From assembly GCA_963832165.1 (NCBI GenBank), contig CAWHTE010000003.1:608001-672000 (forward strand): a DNA stretch of 64,000 nucleotides, given 5' to 3'. The position numbers are program-made. The stretch comes from an uncultured delta proteobacterium (GTDB lineage Bacteria > Myxococcota_A > UBA9160 > SMWR01). This document shows positions 12,001 to 27,000 of the stretch, piece after piece (the first letter of the stretch is position 1; every line of letters starts with the position of its first letter).

Positions 12001-15000
12001 GGTTCGACGTAGGTGTACCGGTACTGGGCAAAGAGCGAGACCAGCGGGGTCACCTGGAAGTTCAGACCGGCGTGGGCGTCGAGGCCGACCTCGACGGTTT
12101 CATCGTCGCCGGCTGTGTCGAAGTCGACGATCGAGACGAAGATGCCGGGCCCGATGCCCATGAATGGCTGGACGCGGCCATTCGGGAACTCCTCGCTCGT
12201 GACGAGGGGCGCGCGCAGCATGAGCAGCGGCGAGATCGGGATGACGTCGATCTCGGGACCGCCGACCGTGTCGTCATCGGGCGCGAAGTACGACACGTCC
12301 CCTGCGACGCCCAGCCACGGCAGGGGATCGAACCAGTATCCGCCCCGAATGCCGCCGTTCGGGGAATCCTCGTACTCGGTGGAGAACTCGAAGGACGGAG
12401 CGTTGCCCGGGGGGTCGACCTCGACATCGTTGTCTTCCGTGAACGAGCCTCCAACGCGCAAGTCGACGAATCCCTCGCCGCGCGCGGCGTTCGACGCCGT
12501 GAGAACGACTAACACGAGCGTCGCGACCAGGCACGCGATCGGTGCGGTTCGATCCATGCGATCACCCCTCTGAATAGGAGACGACAGCGTAATGGGATCG
12601 CCGCTCGGGTCAATCGTACTCGCGATCTCATTTTGTGATCGCGCGCACGGGGTTTGACCTACAGAACCTTCGCCGTAGAGACGGTGAACTAATATCGCGT
12701 TGTGCTTCGACGCCGAACGGCGCCCGGTGCTCTACCAACTGAGCGCACAGCGTGGCCGATCGCGGCCGGTTTGCTCGCAGATTGCTCACACCGTAAGACA
12801 GGCACGCAGTACCGAGCAGGCTCGCATTCCCCGCGACGCGATGCTGTTGCGCCCCCGCGGGACCCCGAGGCCCCTTCCCCCAAGAATGCTTGTCTCCGCG
12901 CCCGGAGAGGACTAGAGCTGGAGGTAACGGAGGAAACGACATGGCGCGCAACGCTCGGCCCTTTCTCGTCGGTGTGGGCTTCGTGCTCTCGACAGCCATC
13001 GCGGCGGTCGCGGCGCATCTCCACCTGATCCAGTACACGGGCACCGGCACCGACCACCTCGGCGCGGCGTGTGCGTTCGGCGACGTCACTGGGGACGGCG
13101 TCCCCGACATCGTGGTCGGCACGGACGGCGGCGACTACGTCGACGTCTACGACAGCGCGAACCCGGCCTCCCAGATCTACCACTTCACGGGCGGGCCGGG
13201 TGACGCGTTCGGGAGCGCCCTCGCGACGGGCGACCTCAACGGGGACAGCATCGACGACGTGGTCGTCGGGGCCTACAGCTGGGACGGCCCGGCCGGTGGT
13301 GACCAAGCTACGTGCAGGCGTACGGCGGTGCAAACGGCGCGTTCCTCTTCCGGCTCCAGGGCGTGAAGCTCACCGACACCTTCGGCGCATCGGTCGCGGT
13401 TCGCACCTCGACGGTGACGGGAAGGGCGAGCTGCTCGTCGGCGCGCCGTTCGCCGACAAGCGCGGCACCAACAACAATAACGGCTACGTGAAGCTCTTCG
13501 ACGGCGCAACCCTTACCGAGCTGTTTCGCTGGGATGGGCCCGAGGCGTATGACGAGATGGGGCGCAGCGTCGCCTTCGGTGACGTAAACGGAGACAGTCA
13601 GGCGGACATCATCCTCGGCGCGAGCAGTGGGAACCGCACCGACTATGGCGGCTACGTCTGGGTCATGAACGGGCTCGCCTTCGGACAGCGCCTCTTCAGC
13701 TTCACGGACGGAAAGGCACACGTGAAGCCGGAGCAGAACTTCGGCTTCGCCGTGGCGTCCGGCGACGTGAACGGCGACGGCAACTCCGACGTGATCGTCG
13801 GCGCCTATCGTGGCCAGAGCGGTCTGCTGCGCACGGATCCCGCCACCGGCTACATCCGTGTCTTCAGCGGTGCGACTGGCGCGCGGCTCTATCAGGTGAA
13901 CAGCGATTTCAACGGCGAGCAGTTCGGGCGCGCCGTGGCCGCAGCGGACCTCACCGGTGACGGCAGAGCGGACATCGTCGGCGGGGCCCGCTGGGGTGCG
14001 ACCGGCGGACACGTCCTCGTAATCGACGGCCCCACGGGCACCGTCATCGACCGGCAGGACGCGAACGTCGACTTCGAGTGGCTCGGTGCCTCGGTCGCGG
14101 CGACCGACGGCGGCGCGAACGGCACGCCCCGCTTCGCGGCGGGTGCCTACCAAGGCGACTCGCGCTCGCCGAACCCGGGCGGCTACGTGCGTGTCTGGGA
14201 TTTCTGAGGCCCGCTGCCGGGGAATGCAGGACACGCCGTAACGACGGCACACGGAAGTCCGAGCTGCCGACGGGTTCGTGTTCTCCGCGATAACGCGGCG
14301 GACCCCGACACCGGCGATCCCTACGCGCTGCCGGACTCTCGAGTCGGATTTAGTACAGTCCCGCGTCGGGCCGTTAGCTCAGTTGGTAGAGCACCGGACT
14401 TTTAATGGGTTTTCAGGTTCGCGGATTTCGCTGCTAGTTAACTAGCTTGCGGACTTAGGCCGTTTCTTCGGAGGGGCCGGGAGCACCTCGGAGGAGCGAA
14501 GTCCCACCGTAGTCCCCTCATTTCAATTCCCGTAGGCGTGCATCGTTTGCGCGCGCATCGGCGATGCCTCGCTTGATCGAGCGTGCGTGCTGAGTGGTGC
14601 TCACGCCCGTGTGGATCGGCGGGCCGTTGAACCGCGGACGACGCTTGAATTCGGCCCGCTCTGCGGCGAGGCGATTCTTGACGCCCTTGGCGCTGTTCGG
14701 CTCGGCCGTGAGTGCGCTGACCGTCTTTGCGATCGCGCGGTGGCGTGCCGCATCGGTGATGCCTGGGATCATGCTCAGGACCGCGAAGAGGTCGTGCTCG
14801 AGGTACGAGCCCCGACGCCGCGGCCGACCGCCAGATACCTCTACCTGGGCCTTCAAGGCGGGGTCGGCCTCGCGATCGAGGTGCTCGCGGATCACCTGGC
14901 GGACCAGGCCGCGGATGCTCTCGTTCATCGGGAGCTGGAACACCGCGAGCTGATCCAGCTCGGGGTCGGGCGCACACGGGCGCTGGAGCTCGTTCACCTC

Positions 15001-24000: not shown

Positions 24001-27000
24001 ATGGCGACGAAGTACACCGAGGAAGACACGGGGCACCTCGCCGCGACGACGCGCACGGATCGGCGACTGCACCTGGTGGTGGACGGCACCGTGATGCGGC
24101 ATCTCGCCGCATGGCGTCTGGACGCCATCACCTCGGCCACGCTCCGCGAGTGGTGGAATGCCGAGATCCAGAGCACGGAGCGAACGAACGCAACGGGAGC
24201 CCGCTACCTCGCGAGCATCGCGGGCGTATTCAACTACGCCGTGGAACTGGGCTACATCACGGAGAGCCCGGTAGACGCGCTCCGTCGCAGCCTCTCACGG
24301 CGCGAGCGGTCAAAGCAGGGCAGGGCGAGTACCGGATCGAAGGCAAACCCGATCGAGGATCGGGATGCGCTGGCACGATTGGTGACGGAAGCGCGTGCCC
24401 AGGGGCCGGTCGAGTACGTCATCACGTTGGCGATGCTCGACGCTGGCCTGCGCCGTGGTGAAGCGGTCGCACTGAAGTGGCGATCGGTCGCGTGGGGCGT
24501 GTCTGCCGATGATCCGCGTCGGCATCTCTTTGTCTCGGCCACGCGGTCTAGAGATGAAGAAGAAGACGCACCGAAATCGGGTCGGACCCGCCGCGTGCAG
24601 CTCTCGCGGCGCCTGCGTGCCGCACTGGAGGAACTGTTCGAGAAGCGCCGGCCGAAGACGCTCGACGATCGGCTCTGCGGCGACATGAATGGCGAGCAGT
24701 TTCTCAAGGGCCCGTGGCAGCAGATCATCGCCCGCGCCGATCTCCCCGGCCGCGTTCCGAAGGATCTGCGCGACTCGTTCGGCTCGTGGCTCGTGAGTTG
24801 CGCGGTTCCACTGCTCTACGTCTCGCGCCAGCTCGGGCACTCGTCGATCGCCGTTACCGAGAAGCACTACGCAAAGTGGATACCGGGGGGCGGCGACCTC
24901 TACGTTCACCCGCCGATGCTCGATCCCGGCGACGTACCCGCGGATCTGCTGACGCGGCTACCCGAGTCCCACCAGAGTCCCCTCATCGGCGACCCCTTCG
25001 AGCTTCCCGAGTCGCTCAAGTCACCGGATTTGCACTAGAGTCCCGAGTCGGGCCGTTAGCTCAGTTGGTAGAGCACCGGACTTTTAATCCGAGGGTCCAG
25101 GGTTCGAGTCCCTGACGGCCCACCAGTAATCATCGCTCCAGCTAGGTGCGATTCTGCGGTAGTACCAAGCATCATCGAGAACGACGTTCATGTCGGTGAA
25201 CAGCCGTCTCCTGCGGACAAAACCCGCACGAGTCAGCGGGTGACCTCGAGCTTCCGGCCGCCCCGTCACTGAGGTAGAACGCGCCCCGCGTCGACGTCTC
25301 GATCAGGTCCGAACGGCTGCGAGGAAGCAGCGATCTCAGCGAATTAGGCGACCTTCTGCCGTCCGGCGAATCCGGTGGGCCGAGTTCACTGTCACTTGCG
25401 CCGGCCCGCCGGCCCGACGATTGTGTTTGACACGCGCCTTGTCCGCTCCGTAAAAACGGGCGTGTCTCGTCTTAGATCGGAGAACCAAATGGGCAAGATA
25501 ACGGCTGCTGTCGTCGTCTTGGTGCTCGGCGCAATTGCATTCGTCGGCGCAGGACCAGCGAAACAAACGCTGAACGTGATCGAAGATCCAGCAGGCGGCG
25601 TGAACGAGGCGTATCTGAGCTTCGATACCACCGGTACGGTTCGCCACAATCCTCTTACGGGAGCGTATACCGTCAAGCTCGGAGACTCGTTCCCGTTCAG
25701 CAATCCGCTGAGCGGCGATGGTACGGACTCGAGCAGTCGAGACAGTGGCATTTGCTTCGTGACGAGAGTGAACGCCCCCGTTCTTCCGGGCGCCACGGTG
25801 CCAGCAGGCGTGACCGCCGAGACCGTGTACGACTGCACGTGGACGAATCATCTGGCCGATGGATCGATCATGGTCTCAGGGCCATTTCGTGATTTCTCCG
25901 AGACGGAGCTGGCAATCACGGGTGGGACCCGGAAGTACAGCAAGGCACGCGGCTCTTTGAAGGTGAGGCCGGTCGACGTCGAGGCCGATTTCGTCGACTT
26001 CACTTATCACTACGACTTCTTGATCGACTAGCGCGATCGCCTGCGTCACTTCAGGATGGCGATGGCTTCCATCTCCACGAGCAACCCATCCACGGCGAGC
26101 GAGGTGACGCCGACCATGGTCGAGGCGGGAAAGGCGCCTCCCTCGGGAAAGAGCTCCGCGCGCGCCTCGCGCATCGCCGAATAATCAGATTGCTTGTAGT
26201 CGACGATGTACGTGTTCGTCTTGACGATGTCGGCTGGTGTCGCGTTCACTGCAGAGAGCGCCGCCTTCAGATTCCTGGCCGCCTGTCGAATCTGCGTTTT
26301 GAGATCGCCGGCGCCGATCAGATTCCCGGACTGATCGATCGCGACCTGCCCCGATACGAATACGATCTTCGACGCGCCTTCGACGACGAGCACCTGTGTG
26401 AAGCCGGGCGGCTCGAGCAGCGTGGGCGGATTGACGTAGTCCTTCTTCATCGTTTCCTCCGTTCATCCTTACGAACGCTCCCCGAACGTTAGGCGGAACG
26501 TCTCGCGCGAGGCTCCATCCCCTAGCCCTCGCCGCGCTCCGCGCGCGCGGCGGCGAGCGCCGCAAACTTGCCGCTGTCGACCGCGATGAACAGCCCCGAG
26601 GCCTCGACGATCACGTCGTCGCCGCAGAGGAGCTCGCCTGCGGTTCGGATCCGCCGGCCTTCGGTTGAAACGAGCCGCGCCTCGAGGCGCAGGGGCGTCT
26701 CCACCGGCGTGTGACGCCGGTATCGTGTCACGAGCTCTACGGTCATCCCGGTCGAGCCGCTGAAGATCGTCGCCATGCCGAGCGCCTCGTCGAGAAGCGC
26801 CGCCACGAATCCGCCGTGCACGATGCCGGGCGCTCCCTCGAACGCCGCGCCGAAGCTCACCTCTCCTGTCACGCGCCGAGCTGCCATGTCGCGGCGCAGC
26901 ACGGCGGGCGGGGCGAGCGGGTTCGCCTGCCCGGTGATCGGGCTGCGGTCGAGGAAGTCCTCCATCCCCGGGAGGAACGATGTGCCATCGACCGCGCCAC

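Follow-up and report, generated by a model that had tools for sequence, protein, structure and literature searches.

What kind of mobile element carries a DNA-packaging motor without a shell or a portal? The question arises from a tRNA-integrated island (the C3 element) in the window, the 64,000-nucleotide stretch of the genome of an uncultured delta proteobacterium that was analyzed here. A preliminary description took the island and two related copies in the same genome for capsid-forming satellites or very small temperate phages. Features are listed in Table 1.

Table 1. Features of the C3 element and its borders (positions in the window)
Feature	Position	Strand	Evidence or remark
Segment outside attL resembling the element's right end	14309..14364	+	83% over 105 nt, att counted in
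C3 element	14365..25088		10,724 bp; bounded by exact 42-bp direct repeat
attL	14365..14406	+	Exact 42-bp copy; tRNA-Lys-TTT 5' part with 3 upstream bases
162-aa ORF	14518..15006	-	Pfam and PHROG: no match
HTH excisionase-like protein	15104..15463	+	phrog_1840 E 3e-6; HTH_17 below its cut-off
Primase-polymerase (Prim-Pol)	15614..16456	+	PF09250 E 2.5e-44
AAA_25 helicase	16446..17537	+	PF13481 E 5.5e-33
Largest noncoding gap	17538..17809		Short direct and inverted repeats
Probable TerS (family S1), 173 aa	17810..18331	+	Common to all three copies
Phage virion structural protein, orphan, 138 aa	18328..18744	+	phrog_3758 E 1.9e-19
111-aa ORF	18884..19219	+	No function assigned
Exact 409-bp tandem duplication	19324..19732 / 19733..20141	+
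Prohead protease with helical C-terminal tail, 290 aa	20102..20974	+	H57 and S116 kept; weak phrog_4523
TerL, 491 aa	20971..22446	+	PHROG matches; motifs
HExxH protein, 214 aa	22446..23090	+	Weak M41 peptidase match, PF01434 E 3e-6, below cut-off
RHH regulator	23169..23360	+	PF16777 E 1e-6
137-aa ORF	23384..23797	+	No function assigned
Tyrosine integrase, 414 aa	23794..25038	+	PF00589; phrog_1 E 2e-43
attR and intact tRNA-Lys-TTT	25047..25125	+	attR 25047-25088; tRNA 25050-25125

The boundaries proposed previously were reproduced: the 42-bp repeat is exact, and the sister on contig C5 is a 14,899-bp element with an exact 45-bp repeat at tRNA-Gly-CCC. Called genes fill 91% of the C3 element and leave no gap longer than 272 bp. 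The statement that each copy has a tyrosine integrase next to a tRNA applies to the C3 and C5 elements and fails for the third copy, which is cut at the end of contig C4: the C3 integrase had no tblastn match on that contig, and its last 24 kb hold no tRNA piece of at least 20 nt. Two features had been missed. In the C4 copy, indels interrupt the genes for TerL, the TerS-like protein, and the primase-helicase; in the C3 element, the 409-bp tandem duplication contains ORFs of 58 and 61 aa and the start of the protease gene (13 codons). The duplication may be a real event or an assembly artefact; sequencing reads (one run, 0.08 of words) gave short contigs without joints, none spanning it. The segment just outside attL is unlike the tRNA-Lys upstream regions of two genomes of the same genus (G001 and G005) and, judged by its similarity, is possibly a relic of an earlier related element or an extension of att homology.

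The following PHROG assignments reported earlier were recovered (TerL, primase/helicase, phrog_3758 at 2e-19, and a weak phrog_4523 at 5e-4). The integrase has the R, K, R, H, and Y motif residues; both it and the C5 integrase have K where HxxR has its first H. The position of the 162-aa ORF, which reads away from the main operon, suggests a regulator, and that of the largest gap makes it a candidate replication origin. The HExxH protein, for which the other fetched loci gave no homologue, is cargo. A 201-aa coiled-coil protein of the C5 and C4 copies had no relatives outside those two.

TerL carries Walker A (residues 67-73), Walker B (DE, 169-170), and the nuclease acidic residues D305, D366, and D442-443, and in an alignment of 43 TerL sequences the ATPase and nuclease motifs show little or no variation. 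Identity among the C3, C5, and C4 copies is 51-54%, as described. The claim that this TerL is remote from all catalogued phages is true of GenBank phage records (4 matches among 50,697, with Virus Rctr16k at 26.8%) and not of IMG/VR, where relatives occur in 106 stretches, of which 80 were kept. These were found with an alignment as the query; an IMG/VR locus search with a single TerL sequence gave no match. Among the 80 kept stretches, 30 distinct loci have a portal and no TerS-like gene; their median TerL identity is 44%. Across the family, substitution patterns place TerL under purifying selection (dN/dS of 0.04-0.22 in 15 measurable pairs of relatives); for the orphan genes of the family, dN/dS is 0.05-0.45.

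The 173-aa gene has homologues in 68 of 80 genome loci and adjoins TerL in 84 of the 98 loci with both. For its protein model (pLDDT 82), TerS made up six of the top eight BFVD rows at weak E values (0.15-0.5), and the comparison with HK97 TerS gave a weak fold score (Z of 7.5, rank 4). The predicted complex with TerL scored 0.57, against 0.00 for the best control, with runs agreeing in at least 95% of contacts and a partner pLDDT of at least 74. This passes, weakly, a threshold that 116 of 157 solved complexes and 2 of 215 mismatches also attain; among those attaining it, scores of 0.60 or less belong to only 18 of the 157 solved complexes and to both mismatches. There was no match to Pfam in 76 family members or to PHROGs in 4 members scanned, and the TerS-like protein had none in GenBank phage records. 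On these models, the gene probably encodes TerS.

The protease has 21 relatives in which H57 and S116 are invariant, as first reported; its alignment gave only coiled-coil noise against PDB sequences and Pfam. Relatives in phages lie between portal and HK97 capsid genes, with a capsid gene next to the protease in 73 of the 74 loci with room, whereas in the C3 element TerL is directly next. Judged from gene order, the C3 protease is a lone orphan that stems from the head operon of an HK97-type phage. Its donor phages mostly use an unrelated, phrog_979-type TerL (42 of the 44 loci showing TerL), so that a different phage lineage is indicated for the protease than for the motor. The C5 copy has no protease. 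The 138-aa virion protein falls in Atlas clusters that are 53-67% viral or mixed (score 0.95-0.96).

The absence of portal, tail, and capsid genes, noted before, was borne out. None of 71 stop-to-stop frames of at least 200 aa in the three copies together matched capsid, portal, or tail PHROGs, while control capsid and portal proteins matched; the same scan rules out a capsid or portal hidden in shadow frames. Two local capsid HMMs had no match in the C3 element, the C5 element, or the C4 piece, and no connector or adaptor was matched by PHROGs in 16 plus 4 C3 proteins or by a local head-tail HMM. All called C3 genes above 215 aa are assigned (primase, helicase, protease, TerL, and integrase). 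The products of the unassigned genes measure 48-214 aa, which is below the size of an HK97 capsid or portal protein. Scan and gene sizes together refute an HK97-type shell of the element's own.

The element belongs to a family with 41 complete members of 8.4-17.8 kb, defined by TerS-like, TerL, and integrase genes: 38 with a tRNA-overlapping repeat, 1 with a 54-bp repeat without a tRNA, and 2 circular contigs (L089 and L091). With local HMMs, portal was found in 0 of the 41 and capsid in 5; a tape measure occurs in 13. Portal Pfam models matched none of 101 proteins of at least 230 aa from complete elements and three of three portal controls. The 80 genome loci include 56 with an integrase and none with the portal cluster. 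A few relatives outside the complete set carry a portal: a portal-cluster gene occurs in 5 of 96 TerS-like-bearing tree rows and was confirmed by PHROGs in L084 and L123, the latter with TerS-like, TerL, capsid, and portal genes. The TerS-like gene is absent from 32 of 36 portal-bearing viral loci. On a TerL tree of 150 rows (FastTree, with the distant outgroup on long branches), rows with the TerS-like label group together (22 changes versus 46.8 when shuffled) but in more than one clade. The TerS-like profile matched 14,475 of 1.84 billion 50%-identity representatives (E up to 0.001), and of the 598 pattern stretches listed from GTDB genomes, a lower bound, 562 encode TerL relatives. Hosts include rhizobia, Methylobacterium, Gluconobacter, and Acidobacteriota. 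Orphan genes elsewhere in the family encode tape measure, neck, chaperone, hub, and capsid, and several elements carry defense-type cargo (SMODS, AbiC, AbiJ, ThsB, MTase, and REase). A helical protein after TerL (cluster c6; 11-12 of the 41 elements; model pLDDT 86) gave generic helical-bundle matches only (best Z 8.2), no BFVD match, and unnamed Atlas clusters; a role as a Sid/TcaP-like external scaffold is neither supported nor excluded by its model. The literature searched, largely without subscription papers, held no description of the family, which supplements of SatelliteFinder or VEIME could list.

At the level of sequence, the C3 element is integrated site-specifically in a tRNA gene. 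It carries an integrase/excisionase/primase-helicase module, a gene for a TerL whose motifs are intact, and a conserved gene for a small partner, and it lacks capsid and portal genes. A packaging motor with a lone head-maturation gene and no shell or portal gene makes spread in helper phage heads most likely. We therefore consider it probable, with some reserve, that the element is a PICI-like satellite without capsid or portal genes, one that uses a complete terminase of its own to load helper procapsids; the satellite part of the preliminary description is supported. When a helper tailed phage infects the cell or is induced, the element would excise and replicate, the TerS-like protein would recognize its own DNA and hand it to its own TerL, TerL would dock on the helper portal and fill helper procapsids, and helper tails would complete the particle. 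Variable orphan genes, here the protease-scaffold and virion protein, may adjust or sabotage the assembly of one particular helper, in the manner of TMP, TAC, and hub of PLE. The architecture, conserved across many taxa, favors the satellite reading, as do the purifying selection on TerL and the virus-fraction contig of Rctr16k. Against it, TerL-portal docking is normally lineage specific, the motor and the protease differ in phage lineage, the family is not uniformly portal-less, the TerS assignment lacks profile matches and has weak fold scores, and the TerL of Rctr16k is only 27-31% identical to those of family members. In addition, this genome (G000, 89% complete) gave no portal or capsid match that would point to a helper; PF04860, PF05065, and PF05133 found no helper prophage, with controls matched. 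PF06381 was uninformative because no control matched, and the sensitivity of such profile searches is limited, since PF03237 missed the element's own TerL.

More tentatively, and with doubt prevailing, the family may be a very large undescribed satellite family whose portable, portal-promiscuous motor docks on portals of unrelated helpers, so that one element rides many helpers while single genes from the local helper retune assembly. The different phage lineages of TerL and protease fit this reading.

An interference or defense island is the foremost alternative, although unlikely. In this reading, the main role of TerS, TerL, and the orphan genes would be that of decoys or dominant negatives, spoiling the assembly or cutting the DNA of incoming phages, with the island itself moving by other routes or with the helper's motor. 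The single, scrambled morphogenesis genes could build nothing alone, the defense-type cargo agrees, and virion-assembly inhibitors are known (Rta [PMC12987554] and Tab [PMC10884400]). A decoy would not need the near-invariant ATPase and nuclease motifs, however, and the adjoining TerS-like and TerL genes and the circular forms also speak against this alternative.

Prophage decay, with head and tail genes lost and the terminase retained by chance, is disfavored and improbable. It would account for the indels in the C4 copy, the leftover-looking single structural genes, and the related TerL in portal-bearing phages, including a contig of the same genus (L286) with TerL of this family, portal, and protease-capsid genes. 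It is at odds with the narrow size range, both att ends in 39 elements, a core common to many taxa, dN/dS values well under 1, orphan genes in nonphage order (TerS-capsid-TMP-TerL in L066), the separate lineages of the C3 protease and TerL, and a TerS-like family mostly missing from portal-bearing phages.

It is slightly more improbable still that partial elements complement one another, members that share a cell pooling their single modules (capsid, portal, protease, and tape measure) among themselves or with defective prophages there. This genome has three copies, modules differ between members, and a TerS-like-TerL-capsid-integrase element (L284) occurs in a genome of the same family, yet the three copies jointly lack capsid, portal, and tail genes (the C4 copy being cut), and no complete element has a portal. 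Least probable of all is the original view of a capsid-forming satellite or mini temperate phage with unrecognizable capsid and portal genes, for which the protease, the virion protein, the HK97 capsid gene of five relatives, and L123 can be cited, because the unassigned genes are small, no long frame matched, the protease is a lone gene that the C5 element lacks, and the capsid, portal, tail, and lysis gene set of a phage was not found.

A complete motor without portal or shell fits neither published satellite model: PICIs have only TerS, cf-PICIs have a whole head with TerL, and SatelliteFinder, in the available text, lists terL as a component setting cf-PICIs apart from PICIs (PMC10085698). 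Such elements would be missed or miscalled prophage remnants, and TerL alone is no marker of a phage. Should TerL work on foreign portals, the specificity between terminase and portal would be open to direct tests, and a packaging motor independent of the helper could serve as a tool. In its available part, PMC9618062 mentions only the TerS of satellites, with TerL assumed to come from helpers; that of bioRxiv 2025.02.15.638363 concerns other satellites (spindle-virus).

The C3 element resembles PICIs (SaPI and Gram-negative types) in size, in being a chromosomal island with att sites, an integrase, a regulator/excisionase, a primase-helicase (replicase) module, and a probable TerS, and in having no portal, tail, or lysis genes, as far as the model is set out in PMC10085698. 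It differs in encoding its own intact TerL, where a PICI has none and redirects the TerL of its helper through TerS, in a TerS-like family without a Pfam match, and in an integrase at the far end, downstream of TerL; tail-type genes, forbidden in the PICI model, occur in many relatives. With cf-PICIs (PMC10085698) it shares its own TerL and probable TerS, an integrase and primase module, and similar size, the prohead protease being a likeness of the C3 copy only. Unlike them, it has no capsid, portal, head-tail connector, or adaptor, and therefore cannot make its own head; HNH is confined to the C5 copy. PLEs of Vibrio cholerae use a partial virion-assembly set (tape measure, tail chaperone, and baseplate hub) with helper proteins (PMC12987554). 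The same gene types recur in relatives of the C3 element, a functional resemblance only. This element differs from PLEs in having a TerL of its own and in using a tyrosine integrase that targets tRNA genes, and the C3 copy has no tape measure. Virus Rctr16k (KX853514), a 16.7-kb circle at depth 219 from a virus-fraction metagenome, was published as a phage genome rather than a satellite, and its authors, in the accessible text, could annotate no head protein (PMC5099504); we found no capsid or portal match in the 23 of its 25 annotated genes that were scanned. Its TerL is 27% identical to that of the C3 element, its protease is Mu type, its replication genes are DnaC/O type, and no homology to the TerS-like family could be shown for its small upstream gene (hhalign probability 0.12). 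Its integrase, replication genes, TerL, protease (matched by that of the C3 element), and tape measure (matched by those of relatives) nevertheless suggest, by gene content, a distant analogue of the C3 family.

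The boundaries of the C3 element, an island at tRNA-Lys-TTT, are as the preliminary description had them, an exact 42-bp repeat that corresponds to the 5' part of the tRNA gene lying at both ends. The relative claimed on contig C5 is equally well delimited (14,899 bp, with an exact 45-bp repeat at tRNA-Gly-CCC). An integrase had been placed beside the tRNA in every copy; this holds for C3 and C5, but in the C4 copy, whose contig ends inside its TerL, no integrase or tRNA piece was seen. TerL, the TerS-like gene, and the primase-helicase of the C4 copy also contain indels, which may reflect decay or consensus errors; they and the split FG-GAP gene may both be consensus indel errors in this assembly. 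Sequence resembling the right end of the element, left of attL, and an inverted tRNA-Lys piece may be remnants of islands that occupied this tRNA earlier.

An exact 409-bp tandem duplication within C3, absent from the preliminary description, has no microhomology at its ends and is the sole head-to-tail exact copy among the genome's six exact repeats of ≥150 bp within 3 kb. It may be a real event or an assembly artifact. The duplication created a fusion ORF and costs no gene, because its downstream copy runs into the intact protease gene.

Coordinates of features in the window, C3:608001-672000, and in related loci
Feature	Position	Remark
C3 element	window 14365-25088	flanked by 42-bp repeat
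tRNA-Lys-TTT	window 25050-25125	intact
Inverted tRNA-Lys piece	window 12724-12751	21-28 nt; 1.6 kb further left than the next-but-one row
FG-GAP/integrin-repeat gene	window 12941-14207	broken into two frames
Right-end-like sequence	window 14309-14364	left of attL
Tandem duplication	window 19324-20141	409 bp
Fusion ORF	window 19693-19920	75 aa
HExxH protein	window 22446-23090	weak M41 peptidase match; overlaps TerL stop
PIN-like toxin-antitoxin-like pair	L001:1480-2147	just beyond tRNA-Gly end of C5 element
Exported protein	L001:4586-5146	in C5 element; presumably PEP-CTERM-like, by motif; no PHROGs match
Helical protein, cluster c6	L016:11413-12222	230-290 aa
Locus L284 (G028:C1)	9927-15130	same family; TerS-like gene, TerL, HK97 capsid, integrase, tRNA-Met; no portal match
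Locus L286 (G006:C479)	7087-11657	same genus; TerL of this family (33%), then HK97-type portal and protease-capsid fusion

Called genes cover 91% of C3. From attL they are a divergent 162-aa ORF, an excisionase-like HTH gene, Prim-Pol, an AAA_25 helicase, then (after a 272-bp gap with short repeats) the 173-aa gene, a phrog_3758 virion protein, small ORFs, the protease (290 aa), TerL (491 aa), the HExxH protein, an RHH gene, a 137-aa ORF, and the tyrosine integrase, followed by attR. The HExxH protein, for which no homologue was found among the fetched loci, may cleave helper or host proteins. The Walker A, Walker B, and nuclease motifs of TerL are retained in both C3 and C5. Every stop-to-stop frame of ≥200 aa from the three copies (71 in total) was compared with PHROGs, and the only families matched were primase/helicase, HNH (in C5), TerL, integrase, phrog_3758, phrog_4523 (weakly), and unknown families. 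None of the 71 matched a capsid or portal PHROG, and capsid, portal, and adaptor controls matched strongly in the same scan. The element is therefore unable to build an HK97-type head; the lack of portal and capsid genes reported earlier is borne out in all three copies (the C4 one being cut), and the capsid-forming reading offered with it is not supported.

Identification of the head-maturation protease, proposed from a weak fold match, is backed far better by the neighborhood of its relatives. An alignment of 21 proteins drew 29 IMG/VR and 72 metagenome loci (101, several contigs being in both collections). The next gene belongs to an HK97-capsid cluster (representative, phrog_10 and PF05065) in 73 of 74 loci with downstream room, and a portal-cluster gene (PF04860) precedes the protease in 71 of 74 with upstream room. 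The nearest relative, in locus L163, shares 67% identity over 189 aa. Judged by gene order, the C3 protease is an orphan, the capsid gene normally downstream of it being missing. The TerL of protease-bearing phages is mostly of an unrelated type (42 of the 44 loci showing a TerL).

Where a locus has both genes (98 cases), the 173-aa gene adjoins TerL in 84; in C3, other genes lie between. Its family profile matched 14,475 representatives at E ≤0.001, and Pfam gave no match for 76 members. The protein model is all-helical (pLDDT 82). Terminase small subunits occupy six of its top eight BFVD rows (E, 0.15 to 0.5), and HK97 TerS ranked fifth by Foldseek (E, 0.94) and fourth by VIA (Z 7.5, rmsd 3.0, 81 aligned), levels no better than noise for helical bundles. 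When folded together with TerL, the protein scored 0.57 (best control, 0.00), with runs agreeing in ≥95% of contacts and partner pLDDT ≥74; the co-fold mark was attained for 116 of the 157 solved complexes and for 2 of the 215 mismatches, those at ≤0.60 comprising only 18 solved complexes and both mismatches. All evidence together makes the gene a likely TerS.

TerL relatives numbered 3,431 among 8,000 scored candidates, with 50 to 61% identity among the matches listed (119 after the query). At least 562 occurred among at least 598 pattern stretches in GTDB genomes and 106 among 213 in IMG/VR; the best 80 of the former and 80 of the latter were analyzed, with separate gene calling and clustering. 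Of the best 80 genome loci, 68 contain a 173-aa homologue, 56 an integrase, and 38 the main replication cluster; none contains the portal cluster. The 80 viral loci divide into 32 with a portal cluster but not the 173-aa family, which are real phages, 25 with the reverse, 4 with both, and 19 with neither. Of the 96 tree rows that have the 173-aa family, 5 include a portal-cluster gene (two confirmed, L084 and L123), which counts against a strict rule of never a portal. Five of 60 related genomes have a TerL match, one of these matches being the element at L284. The same-genus contig of L286 may represent a capsid-forming relative or a type of helper.

Complete elements (n = 41; 8,431 to 17,758 bp) were delimited by a tRNA-overlapping repeat in 38 cases (only 14 to 17 bp in 5 of these), by a 54-bp repeat without a tRNA in 1, and as circular contigs in 2. 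Local HMMs detected the 173-aa family in 39, capsid in 5, and portal in none. Portal Pfam models matched none of 101 proteins of ≥230 aa from these elements (TerL, integrase, and replication clusters excluded) and all three portal controls. Orphan genes in the 41 elements, counted by cluster labels from PHROG matches of representatives, are single and in varied order (tape measure, 13; neck/tail completion, 9; capsid, 5; protease, 3). The cluster c6 protein, all-helical and downstream of TerL in 11 or 12 of the 41, gave a confident model and no specific fold match.

No sign of mobility was seen for C3 itself. In IMG/VR, circular contigs represent two family members (about 9.7 and 9.3 kb), and in one of the two the integrase is preceded by a 3' piece of tRNA-Ser. 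Virus Rctr16k (KX853514), a GenBank TerL match at 27%, has an integrase, replication genes, TerL, a Mu-type protease, a tape measure, and, by eye, a piece resembling a tRNA 3' end next to the integrase; no capsid or portal match was found in the 23 of its 25 annotated genes scanned. Passages of PMC5099504 describe a circular 17-kb genome at a depth of 219 from a virus-fraction metagenome, whose annotation includes no head protein, and name DNase for one of the preparation routes. Rctr16k is an analogue rather than a proven member of the family. Published as "phage genome 5," it has the look of a capsid-less satellite in excised, circular form and not of a phage.

The explanation favored, with moderate confidence, is a satellite that uses its own TerS-TerL to load helper procapsids. 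Helper activity would induce excision and replication, the element's own TerS-TerL would fill helper procapsids, and captured single genes might adjust particle assembly. Integration and gene content are seen directly, and we infer each step from excision onward. No helper was found in the studied genome (89% complete). A partial set of PLE genes (tape measure, chaperone, and hub) can enter helper-derived particles, according to passages of PMC12987554.

An interference island is unlikely. A decayed prophage is improbable; dN/dS (simple Nei-Gojobori, non-independent pairs) is 0.04 to 0.22 for TerL in 15 measurable relative pairs (1 of 16 saturated), 0 to 0.42 for the 173-aa family, and 0.05 to 0.45 for orphan genes, and the C5/C4 half-gene of TerL gives 0.45. 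Partial elements complementing one another are more doubtful still, and a hidden capsid is scarcely credible.

No description of this family was found among the main texts of the open literature. The C3 locus contributes an orphan helper-type protease and a mismatch between motor and protease lineages; the count of orphan genes and Rctr16k, as an analogue from a virome, are further additions. A satellite packaging itself into helper heads would work like a PICI, but its own TerL places C3 outside PICIs as defined in passages of PMC10085698, and without capsid, portal, and connector it is also outside the capsid-forming PICIs defined there. Relatives at loci L031, L048, L049, L083, L087, and L136 combine genes for a baseplate hub and a tape measure, in most cases plus one for a tail chaperone, and lack a capsid gene; these are the gene types of the chimeric tail of PLE, the Vibrio cholerae satellite.
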